Below are positions 1 to 44,694 of a stretch of 45,391 nt of DNA, one piece after another. The position numbers and the translations under genes were made by a program. The notes beneath the pieces are model-generated. The model was given only the letters and a program-made list of their open reading frames with translations, did no database searches and had not been told where the DNA came from. Source of the stretch: a virus (lineage: Duplodnaviria; Heunggongvirae; Uroviricota; Caudoviricetes); IMG/VR virus record IMGVR_UViG_2778261297_000007, positions 1 through 45,391 of that record; one strand, written 5' to 3'. Within the stretch, counting starts at the first letter, position 1; each line of letters opens with the position of its first letter.

Positions 1-34
1 AACGTTCATCGATTATCTTGACGGAGGTGGTTCA

Positions 35-529
35 ATGTCGGTTACTGTAACAGTTGAAAAAGTAGGGGCGGCATTTGCATTGATCAAATGCCACCATAGG
101 CCTGAAGCAGAATATGAATTTACTGGTGAGTTTCTCGGGCTTTCACACGAGCTGAAGTTTGCAGGGAAGAATTTACGAGAACTGAGAGAAACTGGCTGTT
201 CTATTTATGGAATTTATCAGGATGAATACGGCATGACCTTACTTCCTGATCATCCCGGCATTAAACTGGCCGAAATACTAGCGGTATCAAATATAGGACT
301 GAATAAATTTTCGGTTTACATGGGATGTCGCGAGCAAGAGATAGTTGAATTGTTGAACGGTTCAGTTTCACTGACGAAAGCTATGGCACTCCGATTATCG
401 CATGTAGTCGGTGGAAGTTGGTCGAAGTGGATGTTAATTCAAGAGCAGTTTGAATTACAGTTGGCACAACGAGAGATTAAAGAATTAATGATTTTGACTA
501 ATATCGGGGATGAGGTCGTTGGATTATAG
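35..529 (+). CDS. HigA-like HTH (XRE-family) DNA-binding protein with ~60-aa N-terminal extension
   Basis: C-terminal half (HPGIKLAEIL...LTKAMALRLSHVVGGSWSKWMLIQEQFELQLAQ) matches the HigA-type antitoxin HTH pattern; GGAGG RBS 8 nt upstream of ATG. Confidence 0.5.
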   Translation: MSVTVTVEKVGAAFALIKCHHRPEAEYEFTGEFLGLSHELKFAGKNLRELRETGCSIYGIYQDEYGMTLLPDHPGIKLAEILAVSNIGLNKFSVYMGCREQEIVELLNGSVSLTKAMALRLSHVVGGSWSKWMLIQEQFELQLAQREIKELMILTNIGDEVVGL

Positions 530-601
530 TAAAACAACCATCTTTAACTGATGGGTTTGGCCTTTCCATCCATAAGAAAGGCCATTGCTGTAAAAAATAA
601 A

Positions 602-1228
602 TTACCCGCGACTGCAGCCGAAATTACGGTCCCCATCACCGACTATTTTAGTTCTTACTTTGGTCATGTAATCCACCCTGTTCATCAAATCGCTATAAGT
701 CTGCTCAAAGTTGTCCCTTTTACGATTTAGGAGATATTTTCCATTTGATGGGTAATTAACTAGCTTCCCAGAGTCATCTATCGGGATGCCAAGTGCACTG
801 TACCAGGCTGTTGTTATCATTGTACGTAACGTGTTACGCTTTAAGTCATAATCCCCCAAATGATAATAAGCATCCTGATTGAAACACAATATCAGATGGT
901 AATGCCGTTTTCCATTTTTGGTATATTCTCGGACCCATGCGTAACGTAAGGTTGAATGTCGGGTATCAGGCCAGTCTTTTCGTTGAGTTTTAATATGCTT
1001 ATCGTGTTCAAGCTTTGCTTTTAACGCACTGGTAAAGCGAGATATAGCACCAGAGTCAACTCTGGGTTGAAAGAATGGGTTATCCATATTTTCTGTATCA
1101 ATTGGATCATGCAGATCAACACGAAGAATCATTGAGTTAGGATGTTCGTTGAGGGAGTCATCAATAACCTGTTGTATTCTATCCCGATATAGGGATACGT
1201 GTGATCCGAATTCACTATCGTATGTCAT
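602..1228 (-). CDS. Gp2/YfjJ-like family protein (inovirus Gp2-type, island core)
   Basis: 208-aa ORF with HYHLILCF motif; size and position downstream of the DUF3987 gene as in CP4-57-type islands (recalled family resemblance, not searched). Confidence 0.4.
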   Translation of the reverse strand: MTYDSEFGSHVSLYRDRIQQVIDDSLNEHPNSMILRVDLHDPIDTENMDNPFFQPRVDSGAISRFTSALKAKLEHDKHIKTQRKDWPDTRHSTLRYAWVREYTKNGKRHYHLILCFNQDAYYHLGDYDLKRNTLRTMITTAWYSALGIPIDDSGKLVNYPSNGKYLLNRKRDNFEQTYSDLMNRVDYMTKVRTKIVGDGDRNFGCSRG

Positions 1229-1358
1229 ATTGTATCCTATTTATTGATATTGGTGTAGGTAATATATACAATATATATTACCTATCATGATAACAAACTA
1301 TTAGCCGGACTGGGCTCGGTGTTTGTTTTTACTCCTGAATTAAAATCATTTGTTATCA

Positions 1359-2774
1359 TCAAAGCTCGGGGTTTAAACCAGCTATGGTTATCAATGTGGT
1401 TTTGCCTTTCTTTGCCACTAGTATTCTATTTTGAGAGTACAACATACCGAGTAATTCATTTGCTTTACTACGCTTTCTAAATTTATTAGGACCATATTGG
1501 AGAACAGTATTTTTAGTAATGTAAGGTACAACAAGGCGGTTACAATGATTTTTTATCCACCAATAAAGCTCATCCGCCTCCGAGATTGCGGGCGTTAATT
1601 CCTGAGGTTTAGAAAATATGTGGATGTACTCATTAACATACCAGGTAGTTATCTTCACAGCATCTTCGACTGCAGAAAGAGATATATCTCCATCATTGCC
1701 ATTAAAATAATGCAGCAGAGAGGCCACTCTGGCCATATTTTCTGCGACCTTAGATGCATAGTCTCTAAAATCTGATAAGGTGCCGAGTAAGCCCATATCT
1801 GACTCCACCTTGTTATAAAATTCGATCCAGCGATTTTCTGCTTCTACAGAAAATCGCAGGCAAAGACGATCATTTTGATTATCTCTGGCAATACTTTCGT
1901 TAACTATCTCCATCAGTCGTTGATGGAATACCGGCAAATGTTCGCTTGAAACAACGGGGCTGGAGATTCTTCTGGAACCTTGCTTTGAATCAGGCTGGCA
2001 TATGAGACATCGAGCGAAAAAACCGATCCCTTTGGCTGTATCGCCTTTACGTTGCAGATAACCTTTAAACACATCAGGCTGAACCATAAGTGCTAGCGTC
2101 AGTCTGGCATCTCTGATTAATTTCTCTGGCTCACTTTTCCTTTCCACTGAAAATGTTGCGCCATCCCACATTTTGTTGATGAAAGGCAGTTCGTTCAGCG
2201 TGTAACCGTTAAAAATAGTGCCAGCCTCATCAGACATGATACCGATAGATCGCCAATAACCACAGAGGTAATCTTTAATAGCCGCAGGAGTGGCATCATT
2301 AAATATCTGCTTGAACCTGATCGGTGGTTGCTGGTGCGACGCCAACAGCGCTTTAAGTTGTTCATTTGTCGCCAGATGATCTTTGTTACGGCGAATATCT
2401 GATTTGAGTTTTGACATCAGTGCTTTTCTTTCAAAATTAAAAATTTCTTCATCACTTCGCCAGGTATTAAGAGCATGCGTGTACTTATCAAATAATTCTT
2501 CCTCCAGTTGATATAATGGCTTCATCAGCATTTTATCAACCGTACTTTTCCGTTCGCCAGATTCTGCAAGTGTCAGCAAGTAAAGTGATACTGGGCTACG
2601 TAGATTAGTAAGTCGACAAACATCAATCCGGTTCTGACAGGCAAGAGATATTACCCCAAGAGCAGAAGCAGCAATCAAACCTTGAGGGGCCTGCGTATGC
2701 TGTTCCACTTCATAAATTGCATTTCTGATAATCTGAGGGAACGCATTTACAGGAAAAGGATGACCGTTAAACAT
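1359..2774 (-). CDS. DUF3987 (YfjI-like) primase-like island protein
   Basis: 471-aa ORF directly downstream of alpA on the same strand; size and context match YfjI/DUF3987 proteins of P4-integrase islands. Confidence 0.45.
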   Translation of the reverse strand: MFNGHPFPVNAFPQIIRNAIYEVEQHTQAPQGLIAASALGVISLACQNRIDVCRLTNLRSPVSLYLLTLAESGERKSTVDKMLMKPLYQLEEELFDKYTHALNTWRSDEEIFNFERKALMSKLKSDIRRNKDHLATNEQLKALLASHQQPPIRFKQIFNDATPAAIKDYLCGYWRSIGIMSDEAGTIFNGYTLNELPFINKMWDGATFSVERKSEPEKLIRDARLTLALMVQPDVFKGYLQRKGDTAKGIGFFARCLICQPDSKQGSRRISSPVVSSEHLPVFHQRLMEIVNESIARDNQNDRLCLRFSVEAENRWIEFYNKVESDMGLLGTLSDFRDYASKVAENMARVASLLHYFNGNDGDISLSAVEDAVKITTWYVNEYIHIFSKPQELTPAISEADELYWWIKNHCNRLVVPYITKNTVLQYGPNKFRKRSKANELLGMLYSQNRILVAKKGKTTLITIAGLNPEL

Positions 2775-2900
2775 ATAATACCTCTAATACAATTCACGTT
2801 AAAAAATTCTGCGCAAGTTGTTATTCCGCTATTAATAGCAGAAATAGCAGGATGAAATAACTCTAATTACAACATTTTGAATGTATGTTAGGTAATTACT

Positions 2901-3113
2901 TCAAATAAGTTTGCTGCGTTGCGATAGCCATTCATCAATCTCTGATTCAACCCATCCAACAGATTTCACTCCGAGCATTCGCTTTTTGGGGAAGGAAGCG
3001 TCGTAACGCGGTGATTTGGGGTTCAACCAGTCGTAGATTGTTGCCCTTGCCATACCAGTTTTTTGGATTACCGTAGGTAAGCGGAGTATCCTAACGGTTG
3101 ATGGATTGTTCAT
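2901..3113 (-). CDS. alpA: AlpA-family transcriptional regulator
   Basis: 70-aa protein with the characteristic AlpA motif (ILRLPTVIQKTGMARATIYDWL...); located near a P4-type integrase. Confidence 0.8.
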   Translation of the reverse strand: MNNPSTVRILRLPTVIQKTGMARATIYDWLNPKSPRYDASFPKKRMLGVKSVGWVESEIDEWLSQRSKLI

Positions 3114-3238
3114 GCTTGATTGCCTCTCGTTAGTTCATTTTGGTTGTAGAAAGATTAGCGGCAAGCATTAATGCAAAAAATCCGCGTACCAAAAATACAT
3201 TTTTTACAACACTTAACTAATTGATATTTGGTGTTTTT

Positions 3239-3841
3239 ATGTTGACAGCGATTGAGTTTTGCGAAGAAATTAGTCAAAAATCGGTTTGTCTTTCTGGGCA
3301 GATGGTCGAATGTGATTGGGACATATACATTGATATGCTCAGCGAAAGTTATCCTGCGATACTGAAGGAACTAAGCGAAATGCGAGATCAGTTCTGGAAT
3401 TCTGATAAGGTAGGAACACGTGTGGTTTTGTATAGTGCTCCATCTCATGAAGAGTATAAATATTGTACTGGTGACAGAGTGGGTCAATTAATAGAGGAAT
3501 ATGCTGAATTATATGATCCAGTTCAGGAATGCTGGAAAGAGTTAAAGTCACGTATTTTCAGGGGAACATTTTCTCATCTTATTCAGGATCCTTTTTTAAT
3601 TAATGATGTGTTTAAATCACATCTATTTTTTGCCTCGATGTCTTATCAATGGGGAAAATCAGTTATGTCAGAGAATGAGTGTGTTGCTATTAAAGCATTC
3701 ATTAAATCTTCTGAATTATTTGATAGATGTATTGGTATGTCATGGTTTCATGTTTCTGTATGTGCTCAAAAAAATTATCCCATGTTAGAGCTAAAGCCGG
3801 AAAACAAGGTGGGAGCAGTAAAGCGGAAGTATATCGAGTAA
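3239..3841 (+). CDS. Hypothetical cargo protein (unknown function), AT-rich
   Basis: Open frame opposite to int/alpA; ATG at 3239 preferred over TTG at 3221; no recognisable domain; low GC relative to flanks. Confidence 0.4.
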   Translation: MLTAIEFCEEISQKSVCLSGQMVECDWDIYIDMLSESYPAILKELSEMRDQFWNSDKVGTRVVLYSAPSHEEYKYCTGDRVGQLIEEYAELYDPVQECWKELKSRIFRGTFSHLIQDPFLINDVFKSHLFFASMSYQWGKSVMSENECVAIKAFIKSSELFDRCIGMSWFHVSVCAQKNYPMLELKPENKVGAVKRKYIE

Positions 3842-4116
3842 TTCAAGATAAACTTGTTTATTTGATCAATGAATCTGTTCCTGAAGGTGGGTGGAAAAGT
3901 AAAGCAGCTGCGGTAAATGCTCTCATTGATCCTTTGTGGGACTTTATTAAAGAGTCAAATTTTGACATTAATAATGAAAGTAAAAAATATCGTATCGCAA
4001 CAATGAGCCAAGATGCTTTGGAAGATACTATTATTAAAAACTGGTCAAGAAATATTGAAAGTATCAAATTGGCTTTAGATAATACAGTTGCTAGAAAAAA
4101 GAAAGTCACAGGATAA
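3727..4116 (+). CDS. Hypothetical cargo protein 2 (frame -1 relative to upstream ORF; possible frameshifted continuation)
   Basis: ORF in a different frame overlapping 3727-3841 of the upstream ORF with no good independent start after 3841; may be a single gene interrupted by a frameshift or two overlapping genes. Confidence 0.3.
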   Translation: MYWYVMVSCFCMCSKKLSHVRAKAGKQGGSSKAEVYRVIQDKLVYLINESVPEGGWKSKAAAVNALIDPLWDFIKESNFDINNESKKYRIATMSQDALEDTIIKNWSRNIESIKLALDNTVARKKKVTG

Positions 4117-4142
4117 AAGCCCGTATTATTAATAGTTGAATT

Positions 4143-4167
4143 ATCAGCACCCATTATGGGTGCTGAT
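4143..4167. terminator. Bidirectional hairpin between convergent cargo gene and integrase
   Basis: Perfect inverted repeat atcagcaccc-attat-gggtgctgat located between the stop of the + cargo ORF and the stop of the - integrase. Confidence 0.4.
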
Positions 4168-4174
4168 AAAGGAT

Positions 4175-5416
4175 TCATCCCACAAGCCGTATTCCCCTAA
4201 CCCCACTATTAACGATACTGCCGCTATCTGCTGCTTTTACAAAATCAGCCCACCATTGCATCATCGGACGACGTTGCTCAAGATAATCACTGCGGTTATA
4301 AGCGCGACGCACCTCATTTTTGTCTACATGAGCAAGCGCTGCTTCAATGACATCAGGTGGAAATCCTTCCTCATTGAGTGCCGTACTGGCGATAGAACGC
4401 AAGCCGTGTGAAACAAGTACACCTCCTAAGCCAGCACGCTTGAGTGCTGCATTCACTGTTTGGCTATTCATTGGTTGGTTGGGCTTGATACGGCTAGGAA
4501 AGATAAATTCTCGGCCACCACTGAGAGGCTTCATCATTTCCAGAATAGCAAGAGCCCCATCAGATAGTGGAACCGTATGGTCCCGGTTCATCTTCATTCG
4601 AGCTGCAGGAATTTTCCATTCGCTAGCATTGAAATCGATCTCATCCCATCGAGCCTCAGCAGCTTCGGCAGGGCGGGTGATGGTTAGAAGTTGCCACATG
4701 AACAGGCATCGTGTGGACAGGCTGATACTTGCCGTGCGCATAGTCTGCATTAATTGTGGAAGTTGATCCGGGCGGATACTAGGCATGTTTTTCTTCTGCG
4801 GTTTCTCGAATGCTTTCCCGATGTTAACGCTGGGAACAGCATCAATTAGGCCTGTGTTCTGAGCATAAATCATGACTTCGTTAATACGCTGACAAAGGCG
4901 GCGAACAGTCTCTAATGCACCTCTGGCCTGAACCGGCTGCACTGCTTTAACCAGAGTATGAGCCTTAATCTCGGTGACACTGATATCACCGATTGCTGGG
5001 AAAACATCTCTCTCAAGCGAGCGCCAGATATCATCGGCATAGTCCTCTGTTACGCTGGCTTTCTTCACATTCCACCAACGCTCGGCAACTAACAGGAAAG
5101 TGTTGGTTTTAGCCTCTTGAGAATTTCTAACCTGCTCTTTCTGATGTTCCTGAGGATCAATGTCTTTCGCCAATAAAACTCGAGATTCAGCTCTGAGTTT
5201 ACGCGCATCAGAAAGGGAGACAGCAGGGTAGGCTCCGAAGCTTTGCTTGGTTCGCTGTTTTGTCAGAGGTCGATAGTAACGGAATTGCCAGAGCTTACTA
5301 CCACTGGACTTGATTAACAGAGTAAGCCCGTCACCATCATATAGCTGGTAATCGGCATCTTTAGGTTTGGCGGCTTTGATTTCCGTATCGGTTAACGGCT
5401 TGGTTTTTCTTGCCAT
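4175..5416 (-). CDS. int: Tyrosine site-specific integrase, P4-type (IntA/SlpA-like)
   Basis: Begins MARKTKPLTDTEIKAAKPKDADYQLYDGDGL (typical P4-family N-terminus); C-terminal catalytic region with R..H..R..Y-type motifs; adjacent to tmRNA 3'-end repeat. ATG at 5416 preferred over the upstream extension to 5452. Confidence 0.85.
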   Translation of the reverse strand: MARKTKPLTDTEIKAAKPKDADYQLYDGDGLTLLIKSSGSKLWQFRYYRPLTKQRTKQSFGAYPAVSLSDARKLRAESRVLLAKDIDPQEHQKEQVRNSQEAKTNTFLLVAERWWNVKKASVTEDYADDIWRSLERDVFPAIGDISVTEIKAHTLVKAVQPVQARGALETVRRLCQRINEVMIYAQNTGLIDAVPSVNIGKAFEKPQKKNMPSIRPDQLPQLMQTMRTASISLSTRCLFMWQLLTITRPAEAAEARWDEIDFNASEWKIPAARMKMNRDHTVPLSDGALAILEMMKPLSGGREFIFPSRIKPNQPMNSQTVNAALKRAGLGGVLVSHGLRSIASTALNEEGFPPDVIEAALAHVDKNEVRRAYNRSDYLEQRRPMMQWWADFVKAADSGSIVNSGVRGIRLVG

Positions 5417-5437
5417 GGGGAGTCTCCATGCGTTTAG

Positions 5438-5472
5438 GCCCAACGAAAACAATAGAGCTTTTCGTTGGGCCT
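5438..5472. promoter_or_regulatory. 13-bp-stem palindrome upstream of the integrase start
   Basis: ggcccaacgaaaa-caatagagc-ttttcgttgggcc, flanked by further tttaggcc/ggcctaaa symmetry; lies 20-55 bp upstream of the int ATG. Confidence 0.35.
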
Positions 5473-5540
5473 ATCAATGGGCCTAAAAGGTTCGGATTTA
5501 ATTAGTTCTCTTCGGACTTCGCGGGACAAAGTGAGGGCAC

Positions 5541-5572
5541 AAAAAAGCCCGCAGGGCTTGCGCCGTGCGGGC
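5541..5572 (-). terminator. Rho-independent terminator downstream of the tmRNA 3' fragment (minus strand)
   Basis: GC-rich hairpin gcccgca...tgcgggc followed on the minus strand by a T6 run. Confidence 0.5.
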
Positions 5573-5619
5573 TCTTAGGACTTCATCGGATGACTCTGGT
5601 AATCACCGATGGAGAATTT

Positions 5620-5654
5620 TGGTGGAGCTGGCGGGAGTTGAACCCGTGTCCGAA
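5620..5654 (-). repeat. att core: duplicated 3' end of tmRNA (direct repeat of 44332-44366)
   Basis: tggtggagctggcgggagttgaacccgTgtccgaa matches the intact ssrA 3' end at 44332-44366 with one mismatch; similarity stops immediately beyond. Confidence 0.75.
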
Positions 5655-5778
5655 TAATGCTTAACCTATTGAATATTAATGTTTTGTCTTTTTTGAAAGG
5701 CCTCAAGTGCATTTTACGTGCATATCGTGGTCCCTCTAACGTCCTGATTCCGTCCAACATTTTGAAATACTCACGACG

Positions 5779-6951
5779 CTACAGAGCTGCTGAAATGGCG
5801 GTTTTCCCGTCGTATTCAGCCAGGTATTTACCGTAATTGCGGAACAGCATTTCCGGCCCTTTATGCCCCATCTGCCCGGCAAGCCAGAAAAGGTTTACGC
5901 CCTGGCTAATGTGTCTGGTGGCGAATGTGTGGCGGGTCTGGTACGGGTTACGGTATCGAACGCCAGCTTTTTTGAGGGTTGGCACCCATGCTTTTTTTCG
6001 TATTGCGTCGGCGTTCGCCCAGGGCTCTCCCGTTTTAGGGTCGCTGAAAATAAACTCGCTTTTCATGAAAGTGAATTGTTTCTGCGCCTGCAGCGCGGCC
6101 AGCGCCTCGCTGTTTAATTCTACTTTACGGGTACCGGCTTTTGTTTTGGTGCCTTTCAGAACGCCAACAACACTCGCCGCCTGAACGTGAGCTGTTTTAG
6201 CGATATTGTCGAGATCAGGCCAGCGCAACGCACACAGCTCAGAGCTGCGTAAACCTGTATTGAATGCGAAACGGAACAGGTTTTCCCATTCCGGATAACT
6301 GCAGCTCTGGTAAATGGCGCTGATTTCCGCTGGTGTGAACGGATCAACTTCGTAATCGTCACTATTCGGGCTGCTGTCGATCACGTGGTACCGACTCGCG
6401 CTGACAAGGGTTACCGGGTTGATAGTCAGCAGGCCGTCTGTCACCGCTTCATCTATGGCGCTGCGCAGAAACGAGAGGTTATTCCTGATTGTTTTCAGCT
6501 TTGTTTTTCTGCTGGCGATCCAGTTTTTGAGGACCGCAGGGGTCAGTTCCGATACATGCATTTTGTGCAGCGCAGATAGCGCAGACAGGCACTTTTCATA
6601 ACCGCCAATAGTGGACGGCGAAAGGTTGCGGTTCTGGCAGATTTTCAGATACTCGTCCAGGTAGGACTTAATATTTTTGGTTTTCTTCACTACCCCGAAC
6701 AGCTCCAGTTTTTTGGAGGTGGGGAAGTATTTCGCATAATCGAATGTGCCGCCGGCGATCTGATTCTGTATCTCCCCCAGCAGGCGCTCGGCATACTTCA
6801 CGCCGCGCGCGTTTGCTTCCATTCTGGAAAGGGGCTCCCGGCAGAGAACCCCCTTGTAGGTGAATGTGATCACCAGGGTGTCGCCAGTTTTATGCTGGCG
6901 AATGGTTACTCCTCTTGGGAGAGATAATGATCCTTGTTCTTTCTTGCCCAC
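5779..6951 (-). CDS. int: Phage tyrosine integrase
   Basis: 390-aa ORF with C-terminal tyrosine-recombinase region (...RHTFATRHISQGVNLFWLAGQMGHKGPEMLFRNYGKYL); adjacent to att repeat and followed by an excisionase-like gene. Confidence 0.85.
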   Translation of the reverse strand: MGKKEQGSLSLPRGVTIRQHKTGDTLVITFTYKGVLCREPLSRMEANARGVKYAERLLGEIQNQIAGGTFDYAKYFPTSKKLELFGVVKKTKNIKSYLDEYLKICQNRNLSPSTIGGYEKCLSALSALHKMHVSELTPAVLKNWIASRKTKLKTIRNNLSFLRSAIDEAVTDGLLTINPVTLVSASRYHVIDSSPNSDDYEVDPFTPAEISAIYQSCSYPEWENLFRFAFNTGLRSSELCALRWPDLDNIAKTAHVQAASVVGVLKGTKTKAGTRKVELNSEALAALQAQKQFTFMKSEFIFSDPKTGEPWANADAIRKKAWVPTLKKAGVRYRNPYQTRHTFATRHISQGVNLFWLAGQMGHKGPEMLFRNYGKYLAEYDGKTAISAAL

Positions 6952-7115
6952 TTTGAAACCTCCGTTAAGTCTATCCAGCGTTCTTTAACGCCATCGACTT
7001 TTAATACATGGACACCCTCTTTCCATAACCCCCTTTGTATCCGTTTGTTAACGGCTTCAACCGTTTCTCCGGCGTCCCGGCAGTAGGTTGAAAGTGGTAC
7101 GCAATCAAGACTCAT
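6906..7115 (-). CDS. xis: Excisionase-like protein
   Basis: Small basic protein (MSLDCVPLSTYCRDAGETVEAVNKRIQRGLWKEGVHVLKVDGVKERWIDL...) immediately upstream of int and overlapping its start; start chosen at the internal ATG 7115. Confidence 0.6.
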   Translation of the reverse strand: MSLDCVPLSTYCRDAGETVEAVNKRIQRGLWKEGVHVLKVDGVKERWIDLTEVSKWARKNKDHYLSQEE

Positions 7116-7389
7116 GACCGACCTCCCGCCCGAATGCCTGGGCATTTTCCAGTTCATTTGCCGCATAGATAAGTGCGTTGTGGTGCGCTCTAAAACCGCC
7201 ATCAAGTTCGCTGGCCGCTCTCTTGCGCAAAAAATCGATTGCAGCCTGATAGTCTTCACTGGCTGGCAAATCTCCCACGAGCATCAGCATGTTTTCCGGG
7301 TCGACAGGGATGGTGGTGAGCCCCAGCTGCTTGGCCTTCGTTGCCAGACGGGTCCAACGCTTAATAATTTCTGAAACTGGCTTATTCAT
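7105..7389 (-). CDS. Hypothetical early protein
   Basis: 94-aa ORF with RBS; overlaps the xis start by a few nt (operon-like packing). Confidence 0.4.
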   Translation of the reverse strand: MNKPVSEIIKRWTRLATKAKQLGLTTIPVDPENMLMLVGDLPASEDYQAAIDFLRKRAASELDGGFRAHHNALIYAANELENAQAFGREVGHES

Positions 7390-7400
7390 GGAGCGCCTCG

Positions 7401-7496
7401 CTACCTCACCAAAAATTTATATTCAATCAGCGCGCCGATAACGGTGGCCGCCAGTAGCAGGGAAACAATGATGCTGAAAGTGAAGGGCTTCATCAT
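7401..7496 (-). CDS. Small hydrophobic peptide (31 aa, single predicted TM helix)
   Basis: MMKPFTFSIIVSLLLAATVIGALIEYKFLVR with AGGGG RBS; below the ORF-track size cutoff, found by manual translation. Confidence 0.3.
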   Translation of the reverse strand: MMKPFTFSIIVSLLLAATVIGALIEYKFLVR

Positions 7497-7906
7497 TTCA
7501 CCCCTGCTGGTTTGATGGCCTGCAGTGCATCAACCTCTTTAACGAATCGGTCATGCATCGCGTCCCATTTCTCACACCATTTCTCCATTTCTCGCTTGCG
7601 CGCCAGGATGCGACGCAGACGGCGAACACAACGCTGGTGGGCGGCCAGATACTCAGCCTTTGTTTCCCCGTCTCGCCATACTTCCCTGTCATCGCGATCA
7701 ATACGCACCCGCGGGTGACGCTGCGCAAAACCTGAACGCTCAAAAGCCTCGGTGGTCATGAAGAAAGCCAGATAGCGGATCGCCGTATCTCGCGTGAAGC
7801 ATTTTTTGATACGACCGTGGCGTACTGCCACGAACAGTGGGCCAACTGGCGTATCGTGTTTCTGTAATGCCAGGTCAATCATGCTTACGGTGCGCTTATC
7901 GTTCAT
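7493..7906 (-). CDS. Hypothetical early protein
   Basis: 137-aa ORF in the early-left operon; no domain recognised. Confidence 0.4.
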   Translation of the reverse strand: MNDKRTVSMIDLALQKHDTPVGPLFVAVRHGRIKKCFTRDTAIRYLAFFMTTEAFERSGFAQRHPRVRIDRDDREVWRDGETKAEYLAAHQRCVRRLRRILARKREMEKWCEKWDAMHDRFVKEVDALQAIKPAGVK

Positions 7907-8124
7907 TTCCGGTCCTTAACTTTGCTGTATCGTTCGTGACTCATTACTTCCCAGTTCTTTCCGCCATCGCGGGAGAGTAGCCGCCAGCGGTGATTAACCT
8001 TGAGGCTCAAATTACCGGAGCCGTGCATACGGCAGGGGTGAATGCGCCTTGCTCTGAACTGGCTTAAAACGTGTGCTGCTTTGAGGTGAACCCACTCAGG
8101 AATTCGTATCGCTGTAAGTGCCAC
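7903..8124 (-). CDS. Hypothetical protein
   Basis: 73-aa ORF translationally coupled to neighbours. Confidence 0.3.
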   Translation of the reverse strand: MALTAIRIPEWVHLKAAHVLSQFRARRIHPCRMHGSGNLSLKVNHRWRLLSRDGGKNWEVMSHERYSKVKDRK

Positions 8125-8350
8125 CAGCTACCTCCTCAAATCTCAGCTCCATTTCGCGCGCCATTTCGATAAATGTGGCCAGTGAGCAAATGTGCTCGTC
8201 GTCGAACAACCGGCGGTCGCATATCACCCTCCCGTTCTCGATGTGCAGGACTACCCGCCCGGTAAAATCAGGGAGGACATGCAGATCCACGTTCAACACG
8301 GGGCGGGGGATCAGCACACCCTGATAGAGCATTGTTTGTTGGTCAGCCAT
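8096..8350 (-). CDS. Hypothetical protein
   Basis: Start placed at the internal ATG (MADQQTMLYQ...) preceded by a GGAG RBS. Confidence 0.35.
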   Translation of the reverse strand: MADQQTMLYQGVLIPRPVLNVDLHVLPDFTGRVVLHIENGRVICDRRLFDDEHICSLATFIEMAREMELRFEEVAGGTYSDTNS

Positions 8351-8708
8351 TGCCGATCTCCGCATTAACTGGTTTCTGCTTTTTGACGAACTCAACCAGC
8401 TCAGAAATGAGCTCGTCGATTAATTCCTTTCCGCTATTTGTGAGGAATTCACCGCTGCCATTAACATCAACAGAGCTGCTGTAAATCCCCTTAATAGCTT
8501 TTACACCTTCGACATTTCCGTACTCACTGATCGCGAGCCTTTCGAATTTTCGTAATAATCCATCGAGAAGAATCTCTGTTAACTCGACCGTGTTAATACC
8601 GCCTTTATTGAGCTTAATAACAAGGCAGTTACTGCCCGTTTTACGCTGGTGGCGTAATAACGCTGCCTTTAAAATTCGGCGGCGATATGTCTCGATTAAT
8701 TTATCCAT
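8343..8708 (-). CDS. Hypothetical protein (AT-rich)
   Basis: 121-aa ORF; no domain recognised. Confidence 0.4.
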   Translation of the reverse strand: MDKLIETYRRRILKAALLRHQRKTGSNCLVIKLNKGGINTVELTEILLDGLLRKFERLAISEYGNVEGVKAIKGIYSSSVDVNGSGEFLTNSGKELIDELISELVEFVKKQKPVNAEIGNG

Positions 8709-8925
8709 TGCGGCGAACCTCCTCCTCTAAGCTCATAACAATTTCCTCTTCTTTTTCGGTCCAATCATTAATTTCTCCAGCAATGTCATAAACAAGAGAG
8801 CAAATAGTTTTAAGTTGGAAATGGTCCAGTTTGTCGTGATATTCAAATAATGCTTGCGTCAAGCCTGACAACTTCTCCGCTTTGATATTCACTTCCTGAA
8901 TATCCTGTCTTTTTAAAACACCCAT
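8701..8925 (-). CDS. Hypothetical acidic protein
   Basis: 74-aa ORF overlapping the downstream start. Confidence 0.35.
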   Translation of the reverse strand: MGVLKRQDIQEVNIKAEKLSGLTQALFEYHDKLDHFQLKTICSLVYDIAGEINDWTEKEEEIVMSLEEEVRRNG

Positions 8926-9031
8926 AATTAACGACCATATGCTTTTTTAATATAAAGACGAGCGATTACCTCGTAACCGCAGGCTGCATAAAGGCATGCT
9001 GTTCTGTATGCCGTCTTATCCTTGATGAAAG

Positions 9032-9424
9032 TCATACGAAGCGCCTCACAGCCAAAGAAGCGACTACCCGACCGTGAATTTTGATTTCTTTCTGTTCATT
9101 GGTGTTGAGGGTGAAAGTTTCGTAATGATGGTTATCTGAGATGATTTTTAATGAGCCATCAGCTAATGGCTCGATTCTCTTAATGAAAAGGCATGGGCGA
9201 CCAAAAGCATCCATTGTGTAAACATAAATGCCAGAGGTAAGCGCACGTCCACCGCAATCAACGAAAGCCACAACCTCACATGGTTCTATGGTCGGCTGCA
9301 TTGAATCACCTTCCATCCGGCAGCTTTGAACGCGGTTGCCAAAGTCATTAATGTTGTCAGATCCGAACAGCATTTGAGGTGTTTTAACTGGCTGATTAAT
9401 TGCGACGGAATTTTGCATTTTCAT
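9032..9424 (-). CDS. S24 (LexA/UmuD-like) peptidase-domain protein without HTH
   Basis: Contains the GDSM(QPTI) serine motif and a downstream Lys (FIKRIEP) typical of S24 self-cleaving peptidases; only 130 aa, no DNA-binding domain. Confidence 0.55.
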   Translation of the reverse strand: MKMQNSVAINQPVKTPQMLFGSDNINDFGNRVQSCRMEGDSMQPTIEPCEVVAFVDCGGRALTSGIYVYTMDAFGRPCLFIKRIEPLADGSLKIISDNHHYETFTLNTNEQKEIKIHGRVVASLAVRRFV

Positions 9425-9484
9425 TTCCTAAGGGTGAGTTTGTCCCCACCAAGAAAGGTGTTAATTAAATAATGTTAATTAATT

Positions 9485-9916
9485 TTAAATTTTGTCGGCT
9501 TGCTTGCAGATGGTTTCTTGCAAGTCGTCTAATTTTTCATAAACGATAGTTAGTGTACCGATAGCCGACAATTCCGGAGGCATGCAATCCATAGCGTTAG
9601 ATAAAGCCATTCTGCAATTGCCAATATCAGCAGACCATGAGTTAAGTTGATTGGACGTTATAATACTTGTTGGTTCTGTAAATTCACCGCACTGCTCGTT
9701 GCCTGAAATGAGCCACAGAACATCAGAATGAAGAATGTTAGCCAATTGGATTAACTGGTCAGCAAACGGAACTGTTTTTTCCGTTTCCCAGTTGTTAATG
9801 GTTTCGGTTGTTAAACCAAGATGATCAGCCAAAAAATCCTGAGAGAGTCGAAGCGAAGATCTTTGATTTAATATTCTTTTGCCGATGGTTTTGGCTACGG
9901 TGATTTGAGTATTCAT
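9485..9916 (-). CDS. XRE-family HTH transcriptional regulator
   Basis: N-terminal HTH (ILNQRSSLRLSQDFLADHLGLTTETINNWETEK) and first gene after the PL-like promoter/operator. Confidence 0.55.
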   Translation of the reverse strand: MNTQITVAKTIGKRILNQRSSLRLSQDFLADHLGLTTETINNWETEKTVPFADQLIQLANILHSDVLWLISGNEQCGEFTEPTSIITSNQLNSWSADIGNCRMALSNAMDCMPPELSAIGTLTIVYEKLDDLQETICKQADKI

Positions 9917-9948
9917 TTCATTGGCTCCGTTGTTTGCCGATGAATGAA

Positions 9949-9982
9949 CTTTAAGTCACGCAATAACTTATTGCAATAACAA
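9949..9982 (-). promoter_or_regulatory. PL-like promoter with operator repeats (TTGCAATAAC / AATAACTTATT)
   Basis: On the minus strand: TTGCAA -35, 17-bp spacer, TAAAGT -10; overlaps direct repeats GCAATAAC-TTAT-TGCAATAAC that share the AAGTTATT core with the cI-cro operators. Confidence 0.35.
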
Positions 9983-10065
9983 AACTTATTTTTATTTTGC
10001 AATTTGGTTTAATGCATTGATTTTTCTGATTAAATTTTATTGTTTTACTGCATGTATACAGCTAT

Positions 10066-10096
10066 TGATAAAGAAAAAGCCGCTTTTCAGCGGCTT
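10066..10096 (-). terminator. Rho-independent terminator downstream of cI
   Basis: Hairpin aagccgc-ttttca-gcggctt followed on the minus strand by a T-rich run. Confidence 0.45.
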
Positions 10097-10117
10097 CAAA
10101 AGGTGTGGTGTTGAAGG

Positions 10118-10816
10118 TTAGAGCCTATTGTAATTGATTGATTCGTGCATTATGGCTTTACCCATCACGTAAAGGTCATCCTGGTTTTCTTCCGTGATAT
10201 ACCATTTCTCATATGCTGGGTTATCCGATAACACTGCTAGCCTGTTTCCCTGCATCTGGAGTCGTTTTAGGTGAAATGTTTTACCAAAAACAAAGACATA
10301 TACACCATCTGTTAGAAAGTGTCGGACGGAAATGTCAACGAAGACACGATCACCGGAATTGAATGTGCTGGCCATGCTGTCGCCATTGACTGTCATTACT
10401 TTTACGACATCTTCACTACGATTTCCAAAAAGGGATTTTGCGTGTTCAGTAGTGAACTCTATAGCATGTAAAACCTCAACATATTCTGAAAGCATAAACG
10501 TGCCAGGCCCAGCACTCACCGAAAGGTCAAGAACTTCGACCCTGAATATGCCAGCGTTATCCTTTACTTCCCTGTCGGGCATAGTCTCTATCACATACCC
10601 CTGTCTGTGGGGTACATGATTTTTCCCGGTAGAAAGCCATTCAGGGCTTACACCCAGCGCATTCGCAATCTCAACCAGCTTACGTGTTGTGTTGGTTTTG
10701 CCTGCAACAAGGCGCCAGATAGCTGGTTGCGAAACCCCAACTTTCATCGCTAATTCTGCCTGTGTAAGGCCAGCGTCAACCATCGCTTTTTGAAGACGAT
10801 CTGAGAATGTGTTCAT
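10118..10816 (-). CDS. cI: CI-like repressor (HTH + S24 peptidase)
   Basis: N-terminal HTH (LTQAELAMKVGVSQPAIWRL) plus C-terminal S24 domain with GDSM motif and Lys (FHLKRL); divergent from a cro-like gene. Confidence 0.8.
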   Translation of the reverse strand: MNTFSDRLQKAMVDAGLTQAELAMKVGVSQPAIWRLVAGKTNTTRKLVEIANALGVSPEWLSTGKNHVPHRQGYVIETMPDREVKDNAGIFRVEVLDLSVSAGPGTFMLSEYVEVLHAIEFTTEHAKSLFGNRSEDVVKVMTVNGDSMASTFNSGDRVFVDISVRHFLTDGVYVFVFGKTFHLKRLQMQGNRLAVLSDNPAYEKWYITEENQDDLYVMGKAIMHESINYNRL

Positions 10817-10925
10817 ACCAATAAGCCTATACAAAAAGTTATTAAGTGGCAAATACGATAAGTTATTGCATAAAGTTATTCAAGGTTATACTCTTTCCTT
10901 GTGTTCAATAACTTTTGGTATTTTT
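10817..10925. promoter_or_regulatory. Divergent cI/cro promoter-operator region with four AAGTTATT operator half-site repeats
   Basis: aaagttattaag, aagttattgcataaagttattcaagg and inverted caataactttt; candidate -10 TATACT at 10888-10893 for cro. Confidence 0.55.
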
Positions 10926-11153
10926 ATGATCAATCAACATGTCAAGAGAGCTATCGATATTCTCGGCGGACAAGCTGCATTAGCAAGGGCTTGTGGGGTT
11001 ACTCAACCAGCTGTTTTTCGCTGGCTTAATGGTAGCCGGGTTAAGGCTGATCATGTCATGTCCATTGTTAAAGCTACTGGTGGCGAAGTTAAAGCCTACC
11101 AGATCCGCCCAGACCTTCCAGACACATTCCCTCATCCGGGAAATGAGGTGTGA
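10926..11153 (+). CDS. cro: Cro-like HTH regulator
   Basis: 75-aa protein (…GGQAALARACGVTQPAVFRWLNGSR…) divergent from cI. Confidence 0.65.
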   Translation: MINQHVKRAIDILGGQAALARACGVTQPAVFRWLNGSRVKADHVMSIVKATGGEVKAYQIRPDLPDTFPHPGNEV

Positions 11154-11161
11154 GGTGTGAT

Positions 11162-11371
11162 ATGTCGCACTCAATCACTACCGAAAACCAAGTTAAGCCA
11201 TTGGATATCGATTATCGCGATCCGCGCGGTGTGATTGTGCATGTCACCGGCTGGAATCGGGATAAACAGCAGGTGTACTTCACCAGGCAGAATTATCCGC
11301 ATGAATGTATGCAGCCTGTCTGGAAGTTCCAACAATATTTTACGAAGGTCTCGGAGGCGCAAAATGCGTGA
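11162..11371 (+). CDS. Hypothetical protein
   Basis: 69-aa ORF with GAGGTG RBS directly after cro. Confidence 0.4.
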   Translation: MSHSITTENQVKPLDIDYRDPRGVIVHVTGWNRDKQQVYFTRQNYPHECMQPVWKFQQYFTKVSEAQNA

Positions 11372-15596: not shown

Positions 15597-15618
15597 AGCC
15601 CCTTGCGGGGCTTTTTTA
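15597..15618. terminator. Hairpin terminator between Q and the convergent moron
   Basis: aagcccc-ttgc-ggggctt followed by T6 on the plus strand; overlaps the moron stop codon. Confidence 0.5.
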
Positions 15619-16566
15619 TGGCAGCGAGTTAACGAAAGAACTGAAAAGGGCCTTATCTTTATTGCTAATTGATTTTTTCAAATGTAGTTGATGATTTAAA
15701 GGTTTAAAGTTTTCCTTTGTGAGATATATACATGCTTTCTCAAAACGATCCTGAAGGAATTGAAATCTTTCATTCAGCCTGGAAACTTTTAATCCTAATG
15801 ACATGACCTTCTTCTCAGGAATATCGTCAGGATTGCAATTATTGAGTTCTTCCAGCACAAGGCGAATATCTCTTTCGAAGATTAGCGCTATGTTATAATC
15901 GTTGAGGAGGCATTCAGGATTACGAACAATGCCAATTACTTCGTCGATGAATTGTGGTTTTACATTATCCTCAGCATTTTCATCTTCGTTATCGGAAGGT
16001 TTTTGAGACATAACATTCGACAACTGCATTTCTTCCTTGGTTTTCCTTCTGGGAAGTAAAACTTTTCCATCTCCTAAAGCAGCCATACGTTTCAAAGCTT
16101 GACTCCCGGCTCGGCCAACTACTTTAGAATCTCTTAAATCTAAAATTTTATGTGCGACCCATTCTAATGATGGTTCACTGGCTTCGATTTTGGCTTTTGC
16201 TTGGTAATGGAGAAAAATATTTTTCTTGGCTTCCTTGAGGGCTGTTAGATATCTGTGGAAATTTGCCTTTTTCTCGAGGTCAGTGGCTAGGTTTTCAAAT
16301 GCTATACCGAAGACTTTTGTACCGCAAACGTGACCCAGGTTCGTCTCCAGACCATCCTCAGTAAGAACAAGAAACCCTTTTTTATGGCCTGTTCGACAGC
16401 TCGACTTGCCACACGGGATTTCTTCCGGGAGGTCATCATAATAACCAAAAACATCGGATAATTGTTGATCGGTCAGTTCCAGCCTGGAATGATAGCTTTC
16501 CCGAGCTTGAATTTCTGTCCAGTCATTAATGCGATCAAAGCTATTGCCGTTTTTAATAAAAATCAT
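15616..16566 (-). CDS. Moron: 316-aa protein of unknown function (AT-rich, Cys/His cluster near N-terminus)
   Basis: Long ORF on the opposite strand to the flanking late/regulatory genes, low GC, no recognisable domain; N-terminal PCGKSSCRTGHKKG...GHVCG motif. Confidence 0.55.
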   Translation of the reverse strand: MIFIKNGNSFDRINDWTEIQARESYHSRLELTDQQLSDVFGYYDDLPEEIPCGKSSCRTGHKKGFLVLTEDGLETNLGHVCGTKVFGIAFENLATDLEKKANFHRYLTALKEAKKNIFLHYQAKAKIEASEPSLEWVAHKILDLRDSKVVGRAGSQALKRMAALGDGKVLLPRRKTKEEMQLSNVMSQKPSDNEDENAEDNVKPQFIDEVIGIVRNPECLLNDYNIALIFERDIRLVLEELNNCNPDDIPEKKVMSLGLKVSRLNERFQFLQDRFEKACIYLTKENFKPLNHQLHLKKSISNKDKALFSSFVNSLP

Positions 16567-16690: not shown

Positions 16691-16767
16691 CGGCCCTTTA
16701 GCTCAGTTGGTTAGAGCGTGCGACTCATAATCGCCCGGTCGCTGGTTCAAGTCCAGCAAGGGCCACC
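16691..16767 (+). tRNA. tRNA-Ile2 (CAU, ileX-like; may score as tRNA-Met)
   Basis: Cloverleaf with anticodon loop CTCATAA; close to the E. coli ileX sequence as recalled; ends in CCA. Confidence 0.7.
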
Positions 16768-16769
16768 AG

Positions 16770-16844
16770 ACCGCCACTAGCTCATCGGGAAGAGCGGCAA
16801 CCCAGGTGTTGTGGTACGGGGTTCGAGGCTCCGGTGGCGGACCA
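16770..16844 (+). tRNA. tRNA-like sequence with anomalous anticodon arm (possible pseudo-tRNA or unusual tRNA)
   Basis: Good 7-bp acceptor stem, D arm and T arm (TTCGAGG loop), CCA end; by hand-folding the anticodon loop is 6 nt (CCAGGT), so the anticodon is unresolved. Confidence 0.4.
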
Positions 16845-16846
16845 CT

Positions 16847-16922
<76 letters not shown>

Positions 16923-16925
16923 TAT

Positions 16926-17000
<75 letters not shown>

Positions 17001-44331: not shown

Positions 44332-44694
44332 TGGTGGAGCTGGCGGGAGTTGAACCCGCGTCCGAAATTCCTACATCCTCGGTACTACATGCTTAGTCAG
44401 TCTTTACATTCGCTTGCCAGCTGCGGACGGACACGCCACTAACAAACTAGCCTGATTAAGTTTTAACGCTTCAACCCCAGGCAGGGCTTCCACGCGATCT
44501 CTTTTGGGTTTGACCTCTCTTGATCCCCGTCCTAAGAGCGGAGGCTAGGGAGAGAGGGCTCTAAGCAGGTTATTAAGCTGCTAAAGCGTAGTTTTCGTCG
44601 TTTGCGACTATTTTTTGCGGCTTTTTACGAGGCCAACCGCCCCTCGGCATGCACCTTGGGTTTCGCAAATCCCGTCGAATCCAGAATCAGCCCC
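44332..44694 (-). ncRNA. ssrA: tmRNA (SsrA)
   Basis: Reverse complement begins GGGGCTGATTCTGGATTCGACGGGATTTGCGAAACCC and ends ...GGACGCGGGTTCAACTCCCGCCAGCTCCACCA; contains the tag-template region (...AAACGACGAAAACTACGCTTTAGCAGCTTAA). Confidence 0.9.

Follow-up and report, generated by a model that had tools for sequence, protein, structure and literature searches.

We have found that the stretch from position 7105 to 8925 of the window (the whole DNA analyzed here, 45,391 nucleotides from a virus of the Caudoviricetes) is filled on its minus strand by seven back-to-back ORFs of 74, 121, 84, 73, 137, 31 and 94 aa (mechanical ORF list and sequence). The original prediction had spoken of six to seven packed and partly overlapping ORFs of 31–137 aa, and both the count and the sizes were correct. 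These genes probably form a mosaic set of optional cassettes within the PL operon of a prophage, switched off during lysogeny and turned on by induction, among which there would be a solitary effector with the RelE/ParE fold. The block is real yet it is an ordinary accessory gene set and not an unusual one, its genes being shared by prophages of enterobacteria in their hundreds, Fels-1 of Salmonella LT2 among them.

The surroundings point to a prophage of about 38.7 kb integrated at ssrA, with the block in the middle of its PL operon, and we consider this the likelier arrangement. The left prophage boundary is marked by an att core (5620–5654), 35 nt long, which duplicates the 3' terminus of ssrA and is repeated at 44332–44366 (blastn 97% over 35 nt); the tmRNA gene is found at 44332–44694 and a Rfam tmRNA fragment at 5620–5821. 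This fragment at att was the only hit of a Rfam scan of positions 5300–11300, in which no antisense or small RNA appeared near o31. On the upstream side, a candidate OL/PL region (9957–10003) has operator-like repeats (ATAAGTTATTGCA and relatives), presumably functional, in common with the cI-cro intergenic region (10821–10923), the two being connected by the repeat families I1, I5, I11 and I12 (inverted) and D11 (direct). A terminator-like hairpin is located 3' of cI at 10097–10076. Hairpin and repeats together bear out that this is an early-left operon, and the block does correspond in position to the red/gam/kil/cIII site of lambda. In a crude consensus scan no promoter-like site was detected upstream of o121 or o84; the sole minus-strand hit lay inside o121 (8582–8555), and the total number of hits was below the shuffle expectation. 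An internal promoter active in the lysogen may escape a scan of this kind.

All the genes of the leftward operon are on the minus strand. The first one (9485–9916, 143 aa) codes for a CI-type HTH protein (Pfam HTH_19 and Phage_CI_repr; PHROG 'CII-like regulator' or repressor). It is followed by a S24-only gene with no HTH (9032–9424, 130 aa; Pfam Peptidase_S24 at 7.8e-09, PHROG 6201 'CI-like repressor' at 2e-41, dN/dS 0.08) and by o35 (8928–9035), a basic ORF of 35 aa with a dN/dS of 0.14 and 86 full-length alleles counted, which is annotated in Escherichia phage LMessi and whose start codon shares an ATGA with the S24 stop codon. The block itself comprises o74 (8701–8925, 74 aa, acidic, pI 4.7), o121 (8343–8708, 121 aa), o84 (8096–8350, 84 aa or 99 aa from an upstream TTG, acidic, pI 4.7), the ParE-like gene (7903–8124, 73 aa, very basic, pI 11.5), o137 (7493–7906, 137 aa, basic, pI 10.1), o31 (7401–7496), which codes for a hydrophobic 31-aa peptide (MMKPFTFSIIVSLLLAATVIGALIEYKFLVR, GRAVY 1.45) that is probably a single membrane helix, and o94 (7105–7389, 94 aa). 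Next come the excisionase gene xis (6906–7115, 69 aa from an ATG at 7115, a start read from the sequence; PHROG 2917 'excisionase' at 1e-40) and, as the final gene, the tyrosine integrase int (5779–6951), assigned from the integrase annotation in homologous records and adjoining the att core. From o74 to o31 successive genes overlap by 8, 8, 29, 4 and 4 nt, a gap of 11 nt separates o31 from o94, o94 overlaps xis by 11 nt, and the S24-only gene and o35 are coupled to the upstream end of the block by the same kind of junction. The ParE-like gene starts with a GTG preceded by a GGAGG 6 nt upstream; its start is overlapped by the last 29 nt of o84, and its stop by the start of o137 (ATGA). This layout supports the view that the block is part of one translationally coupled operon of 11 genes that runs from the PL region to xis and int.

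The conservation patterns indicate that the seven ORFs are genuine genes under purifying selection, beyond chance. Every one of them is found intact in other enterobacterial prophages (depending on the ORF, 5 to 167 other sequences have a full-length intact allele) and every one is annotated as a CDS in LMessi, which is 93% identical in nucleotides. The median dN/dS against the window sequence was 0.06 for the ParE-like gene, 0.11 for o121, 0.13 for o137 and 0.15 for o74, and higher for o94 (0.48, from only 4 pairs), o84 (0.50) and o31 (0.59). Six of the seven match PHROGs with E-values from 1e-28 to 1e-67, among them o74 (PHROG 8959, 3e-31), o121 (PHROG 1737, 2.5e-54), o137 (PHROG 1886, 1.3e-66) and o94 (PHROG 36586, 9e-63), all families with no assigned function; o31 and o35 matched no family in Pfam or PHROGs. 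NCBIfam and PADLOC gave no matches among the block ORFs, save for an insignificant PADLOC hit of o74 (E 0.023). Pfam gave nothing for divergent homologs of o84, o121 and o137 or for three replacement cassettes, and in sequence searches of the PDB nothing fell below E 0.05, either with the single sequences of the six ORFs of at least 73 aa or with profiles of the ParE-like and o121 families. Papers on prophage ParE-like toxins or on early-operon anti-defence contained no characterization of these families.

The ORFs had been described as having no recognizable domains, which is not quite right because there is one exception, the ORF at 7903–8124. Its product matches Pfam PF24732 ParE_like over residues 10–68 (E 2.3e-20, 72.8 bits against a cut-off of 24.4 bits) and is a full-length member of the family; all 80 homologs among the matches listed carry the same domain, and NCBI names these homologs 'ParE family toxin-like protein'. 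The AlphaFold model (pLDDT 87.4) has the order beta-alpha-beta-beta-beta-alpha, N-terminal strand included, and shows the helices against a 3–4-stranded antiparallel sheet that typify the RelE/ParE alpha/beta fold. The likeness is at the level of the fold only, with weak Foldseek E-values (0.05 or worse). In fact the product shares just 5–16% identity with solved RelE/ParE toxins, with no similarity detectable by HMMER, and at 73 aa is shorter than RelE, HigB, YoeB, YafQ, ParE and PrpT (about 84–105 aa). The predicted structure would fit an mRNA-cleaving enzyme or a gyrase poison alike and does not discriminate between them. Residues R46, W47, R48, H63, E64 and Y66 are nearly invariant across the family, and the invariance of R46, R48, H63, E64 and Y66 suggests a functional site. 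Full-text literature searches retrieved no experimental characterization of PF24732 or of proteins named 'ParE family toxin-like'.

We have compared 272 loci that carry the ParE-like gene. Upstream of it o121 was found in 271 of them, and o84 was present in 195 and absent from the other 77, in which the ParE-like protein is 96–100% identical to that of the window. On the downstream side o137 appeared in 205 loci, and elsewhere its place is taken by unrelated families, at least nine in number; o84, o137 or both adjoin the ParE-like gene in all but 3 of the 272. In a second sample, 59 distinct loci retrieved with the o121 of Fels-1, the ParE-like gene was missing from 31. Fels-1 itself has o121-o84-o137 and no ParE-like gene. 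Its early-left genes STM0898.3n, STM0898.2n and STM0898.1n, annotated as hypothetical, are homologs of o121 (45%), o84 (72%) and o137 (58–63%), in the same order and on the same repressor side as in the window, and here too further small ORFs come next, and then xis and int; they differ from the window in that the o84 homolog directly abuts the o137 homolog. The o74 cassette is optional and absent from many related loci. Acidic helical proteins resembling o74 occur in tandem arrays in related loci (L339). The o31 gene is found together with o94 and with xis and int of the type present in the window, and o94 co-occurs with this type of integrase and excisionase. The o121 family is small and lineage-restricted, with 36 clusters, none of them informative, in an exhaustive search of 1.84 billion representative proteins, and has no Pfam or PDB match even by profile; the 296 homologs of o137 include none with a name and none with a Pfam domain; and one o84 homolog, of 70 aa, is labelled Bacterial PH-like domain by NCBI, the predicted model of o84 being mostly beta-strand and matching no antitoxin. 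The block would thus seem, with fair probability, a mosaic array of independent and individually dispensable cassettes.

The explanation that we favor would work as follows. The seven genes, from o74 to o94, would belong to a single message, translationally coupled throughout, whose last genes are xis and int. Judging by the operator-like repeats and the gene order, the CI repressor would prevent expression of the entire array during lysogeny, so that its products would appear only upon induction or infection. The most likely role that we can assign to the 73-aa product is that of a solitary host-directed effector of lytic growth, which might slow translation, like RelE, HigB or YoeB, or act on gyrase, like ParE. 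Its harmlessness in the prophage would come from transcriptional repression and not from a dedicated antitoxin. None of the other six products is a recombinase, an annealing protein, an exonuclease or a Gam-like protein, and the phage has no recombination module at this position. Host manipulation, as originally suggested for these genes, is a reasonable inference in the case of the ParE-like gene, with the operon presumably silenced by the repressor and with relatives in phages that have no annotated integrase.

The PL genes of lambda are small and largely non-essential, and some of their products, Kil for one, harm the host. The lambda operon (from N to xis, with cIII, kil, gam, bet, exo and ea) resembles that of the window in being repressor-controlled, leftward and packed with small, mostly non-essential genes ending in xis and int, and the predicted ParE-like effector would likewise be harmful to the host. 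The two differ in that no relationship of sequence or family with the PL genes of lambda was found in the window, in that its operon has no recombination module, and in that it begins with the CI-type HTH and S24-only genes whereas that of lambda begins with N. Small uncharacterized mosaic arrays are common in the early operons of temperate phages and hundreds of prophages sequenced so far already contain this one without annotation, which makes the present finding a routine one. Its value is a short and defined list of candidates for experiment, headed by a ParE-like gene that is strongly conserved, uncharacterized, widespread in enterobacterial phages and apparently devoid of a dedicated antitoxin; for the companion families o121, o84 and o137 the sole known property is their location. 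Should the product prove to shut off the host and to be silenced by the repressor, there would be one more case of a phage using a toxin fold offensively, a modest advance and not one that changes the field.

A broader reading starts from the distribution of the relatives of the ParE-like gene. In the phages Sortsne and KMB41 the ParE_like gene is located beside lysis genes, after an unrelated gene of about 120 aa, and the full annotation of Sortsne lists no integrase; the Sortsne gene upstream of ParE_like is not a relative of o121 (hhalign probability 0.2). Relatives in Serratia and Brenneria adjoin ParB-like genes, those of Proteus and Providencia are found in ICE-like contexts, and relatives in Serratia phages have been called 'HigB-like' on HHpred alone (PMC7556043). 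It is possible, though not likely, that the 73-aa product represents a phage-specific and antitoxin-free branch of RelE/ParE, a miniature effector of host shutoff or inter-phage competition under the sole control of the repressor and of translational coupling to the preceding cassette, whichever that is. As a mobile cassette its gene would have been passed between temperate phages, integrase-less phages and integrative elements of Enterobacterales. As a variant of this, o121, o84 or o137 could be new non-canonical modulators of the 73-aa product.

We have also considered a type II toxin-antitoxin module made up of the ParE-like gene and a neighbor (o121, o84 or o137). It would be active in the lysogen, stabilizing the prophage or acting by abortive infection against other phages, a role in defence instead of anti-defence. 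The putative antitoxin would come first in the gene order and the reading frames overlap, the acidic o84 (pI 4.7) contrasts with the very basic ParE-like product (pI 11.5), a natural o84-ParE fusion protein exists in the databases (P0018), and some relatives were deposited under the names 'mRNA interferase', 'HigB-like' or 'toxin antitoxin system protein'. The near-universality of o121 (271 of 272 loci), the 29-nt overlap with the upstream gene and the rarity of loci that have neither o84 nor o137 (2 of 272) could reflect a real partnership. Yet the pair is not an autonomous autoregulated bicistronic operon: it is embedded in the coupled operon of 11 genes downstream of the operators, overlapping its neighbors on both sides, with no promoter-like site before it in the crude scan. 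Unlike type II RelE/ParE toxins, the ParE-like gene has no recognizable cognate antitoxin or operon of its own. It is instead one gene of an early operon of a phage, and many arrays that are otherwise identical do without it. Besides, no antitoxin or DNA-binding domain was recognized in o121, o84 or o137 (Pfam, NCBIfam and PDB sequences, divergent homologs and profiles included), PADLOC returned no matches, and distant ParE_like genes have wholly different neighbors. The distance-matrix correlations of the ParE-like gene with o121 (r 0.53), o84 (0.46) and o137 (0.41) were similar, as expected from simple linkage, and do not discriminate between partners. Upstream, acidic and overlapping, o84 was dropped as the antitoxin, since most close relatives do without it and keep an identical ParE-like gene; o121 and o137 do not appear to be obligate partners, given that roughly one in two of the Fels-1-side loci keeps the o121-o84-o137 trio and lacks the toxin-like gene, and the adjacency would be explained by a cassette insertion site. 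A conserved 'GGT.SDTNS' tail of the upstream ORFs is not a shared domain and corresponds to the alternative frame of the N-terminus of the ParE-like protein (MALTAIRIPE). The ParE-like gene and its neighbor do not appear to be a classical toxin-antitoxin pair, and we regard a module of this type as unlikely.

The view that at least one of the small ORFs is an early anti-defence protein (anti-restriction, anti-CRISPR or anti-abortive-infection) was that of the original prediction. Early accessory regions are established as the usual home of anti-defence genes (e.g., bioRxiv 10.1101/2023.04.06.535777), and the block shares with anti-CRISPR operons its small phage ORFs of fast turnover between otherwise similar phages and an early expression that is predicted from its place in the operon. 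Furthermore o74 and o84 code for small acidic proteins, with tandem o74-like arrays in related loci, and Klebsiella relatives have a neighboring cassette with a Lar_restr_allev (restriction alleviation) domain. Location and size predict anti-defence weakly, however, and no ORF matches a named anti-defence protein, Acr families included, in the general libraries Pfam, PHROGs and NCBIfam. Neither did any of the seven match replication or known defence families in these libraries or in PADLOC. The proposed search for aca-type HTH genes found none downstream of the block, where xis and int are located as opposed to the aca gene of anti-CRISPR operons, the only HTH gene nearby being the CI-type one that heads the operon. 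An anti-defence role for these ORFs is thus speculation, and quite improbable.

The absence of recombination genes from the block, claimed at the outset, was confirmed by Pfam, PHROGs, NCBIfam and PADLOC, none of which gave a match to any recombination family; for annealing proteins, exonucleases and RecBCD inhibitors the search covered every ORF in 7105–9424 (Pfam, PHROGs, NCBIfam) and the neighboring early genes tested. That divergent exo/bet/gam analogues or replication functions are concealed in the block, invisible to sequence methods, is suggested by its position at the lambda red/gam region and is extremely improbable, given that Pfam and PHROGs readily detect Erf, RecT, Red-beta, Sak, exonuclease and Gam families and matched none, that the products (31–137 aa) are smaller than known annealing proteins or exonucleases, that the cassettes are individually dispensable among relatives and that the replication genes (helicase-loader-like and primase/helicase) sit on the rightward side. 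Regarding the host, E. coli was ruled out, as no complete genome of this species covers 80% or more of the region, and the closest species-level match was Pseudocitrobacter faecalis, with about 97% nucleotide identity.

A prophage of ~38.7 kb lies in the window, inserted at ssrA, the tmRNA gene (44332-44694, minus strand), whose 3'-terminal 35 nt recur with 97% identity at 5620-5654, where Rfam calls a tmRNA fragment. Leftwards from the immunity region we found cI (10118-10819, complete with HTH and S24 peptidase domains), a terminator-like hairpin (10097-10076), a 160-nt spacer with operator-like repeats and an array of 11 genes on the minus strand, the last two being xis (6906-7115) and int (5779-6951). 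The repeats (9957-10003, core ATAAGTTATTGCA) match copies at 10821-10923, between cI and the cro-like gene, and judging from their sequence both sets look like an OL/OR pair, so that the name early-left operon is justified for the array, which would be read from a putative PL promoter. The rightward arm contains cro-like, DUF4222, helicase-loader-like, primase/helicase and Q-like genes, followed by lysis and morphogenesis genes. The gene at the cro position (10932-11153) matched Pfam YdaS_toxin (E 6e-19) and P22_Cro; the word toxin in the first label is probably misleading, because the gene occupies the Cro position, facing cI across the operators. The first two operon genes (9032-9916) resemble a split CI-type repressor additional to the complete cI, i.e., a 143-aa CI-type HTH protein lacking the peptidase domain and a 130-aa protein with an S24 peptidase domain but lacking the HTH, a pair found again in many related phages.

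The operon block at 7105-8925 consists of seven minus-strand ORFs, named here by their length in aa: o74 (8701-8925), o121 (8343-8708), o84 (8096-8350), a 73-aa ParE-like gene (7903-8124), o137 (7493-7906), o31 (7401-7496) and o94 (7105-7389). From o74 to o31 they overlap successively by 8, 8, 29, 4 and 4 nt; an 11-nt gap precedes o94, which overlaps xis by 11 nt. The S24-only gene (9032-9424) and o35 (8928-9035), both upstream of the block, are coupled likewise. The ORF list and the sequence agree with the original prediction's description of the block, and sequence comparison indicates that the seven are real genes. Six of them match PHROG families (E 1e-28 to 1e-67), all are annotated in Escherichia phage LMessi (93% nucleotide identity) and full-length alleles are widely recurrent. 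Median dN/dS values against the window were 0.06 for the ParE-like gene, 0.11 for o121, 0.13 for o137 and 0.15 for o74; those of o94 (0.48), o84 (0.50) and o31 (0.59) are imprecise, coming from few or barely diverged pairs. The genes belong to existing, uncharacterised families that occur commonly in the prophages of Enterobacter, Klebsiella, Citrobacter, Salmonella, Escherichia and relatives.

None of the seven ORFs received a recombination, replication or defence assignment from Pfam, PHROGs, NCBIfam or PADLOC, and PDB sequence searches with the six products of 73 aa or more gave no match. The original prediction of no recognisable domains stands for six of the seven ORFs. The exception is the 73-aa product, a member of Pfam PF24732, ParE_like (72.8 bits, cut-off 24.4), a label for which we found no experimental work in the literature; no solved relative was detected by sequence, even with the family profile. 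Its ORF starts with GTG, 6 bases downstream of GGAGG. The AlphaFold2 model, built from an alignment of 57 homologs, was confident (pLDDT 87.4), with strand 2-5, helix 10-24, strands 39-42, 47-51 and 57-62, and helix 63-71; as the N-terminal strand is predicted, the GTG start giving 73 aa is favoured over an internal one. Foldseek ranked YafQ, YoeB and GraT at the top with weak E values (0.05 or worse) and TM ~0.5. These results support a RelE/ParE fold but no choice between the mRNA-cleaving and gyrase-poisoning subtypes. With a pI of 11.5 the protein is very basic, and R46, W47, R48, H63, E64 and Y66, near-invariant among homologs, are compatible with an active site.

The reading that we consider reasonably probable is that the block is an array of accessory cassettes, optional and mosaic, inside the PL operon, one of them being the ParE-like gene as a solitary RelE/ParE-fold effector. 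CI would keep the array silent, with expression upon induction or infection, and the possibly toxic effector would be harmless in the lysogen through transcriptional repression and not through an antitoxin. Host manipulation, as originally proposed, is a fair inference for one gene. This reading and its rivals are not strictly exclusive.

It is unlikely that the ParE-like gene belongs to a true toxin-antitoxin or defence module. Four IMG/VR scans with divergent family members, plus annotated records, gave 281 distinct loci, of which the 272 non-truncated ones were counted; since IMG/VR loci are not phylogenetically independent, these counts represent arrangements and not independent events. 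In favour of a module, the 900 nt upstream of the ParE-like gene contain an o121 homolog in 271/272 loci, o84 sits between both in 195, o137 follows directly with an ATGA overlap in 205, and only two loci have neither o84 nor o137. However, five context and domain results argue against a dedicated partnership. The 77 loci without o84 keep a ParE-like protein 96-100% identical to that of the window, and o137 is replaced by at least nine unrelated families. The dependence is one-sided: the Salmonella LT2 phage Fels-1 has o121-o84-o137 (STM0898.3n,.2n,.1n) without the ParE-like gene, which was missing from 31 and present in 28 of the 59 distinct loci retrieved with Fels-1 o121. The surroundings of distant ParE_like genes differ greatly: a ParB-like gene in Serratia and Brenneria (the Serratia phage copies were named 'HigB-like' on HHpred evidence alone; PMC7556043), an integrative-element-like context in Pectobacterium, Proteus and Providencia, and lysis genes in phages Sortsne and KMB41, after an unrelated ~120-aa gene (Sortsne's full annotation lists no integrase). 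No antitoxin or DNA-binding domain is recognisable in o121, o84 or o137, a simple consensus scan detected no promoter-like site before the pair, and pairwise-distance correlations of the ParE-like gene with each neighbour were alike (r 0.41-0.53).

In loci without o84 the o121 frame runs on and stops inside the ParE-like start. The common tail '...GTDSDTNS', considered as a shared feature, was discarded, being an alternative frame of the conserved ParE-like N-terminus MALTAIRIPE. A 147-aa natural o84-ParE-like fusion also exists in the database (P0018, three member sequences, on an 805-nt contig); it is obtainable by a single frameshift inside the 29-nt overlap (8096-8124) and could reflect sequencing error, mutation or occasional frameshifting.

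An anti-defence role, anti-CRISPR included, for at least one of the seven ORFs, a candidate function of the original prediction, is rather improbable: no named anti-defence family was matched in Pfam, PHROGs or NCBIfam, no aca-type HTH gene follows the ORFs, and location is all that speaks for it. Hidden recombination functions are very improbable, as the four database searches bear out the predicted lack of such genes.

The most useful outcome is a short list of genes open to testing, with the strongly conserved 73-aa RelE/ParE-fold gene at the top. Among the related loci, L087-L089 (Klebsiella relatives, 4601-5011) carry the same early-left array with a Lar_restr_allev (restriction alleviation) cassette and an ORF6N-domain gene, both absent from the window; therefore at least some cassettes of such arrays carry anti-restriction annotation. 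In L339 (a Pseudescherichia MAG, 2057-3129) and L341 (Rahnella), three to four consecutive small acidic helical o74-like proteins upstream of o121 resemble paralogs arrayed in tandem. The same set of enterobacterial genes, 73-97% identical at the protein level, is present in records under the names Aeromonas phage AsXd-1, Elizabethkingia phage EKP1 and 'Chryseobacterium sp. 18061' (phage records MH178096.1 and OM284015.1, genome locus L347), suggesting host mislabelling or contamination rather than true host range.

A second mobile element occupies positions 1-5654, sharing the ssrA site with the prophage in tandem. Its P4-type integrase (4175-5452) directly adjoins the repeated 3' piece of ssrA; a helicase-like gene (1359-2774), a member of the YagK/YfjJ family (602-1228) and small uncharacterised ORFs come after it. 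The element resembles a satellite or an island neighbouring the prophage, and no defence system was matched in it by PADLOC. ARAGORN called a cluster of four tRNA-like genes (16692-17000) between the Q-like gene and the lysis genes: Met(cat), '???' (irregular anticodon loop), Thr(tgt) and Gly(tcc). Between this cluster and the Q-like antiterminator gene, a 316-aa gene on the opposite, minus strand (15616-16566) had no Pfam or PADLOC match and belongs to PHROG 7003, of unknown function (E 3.5e-118); it is placed and oriented like a typical moron.
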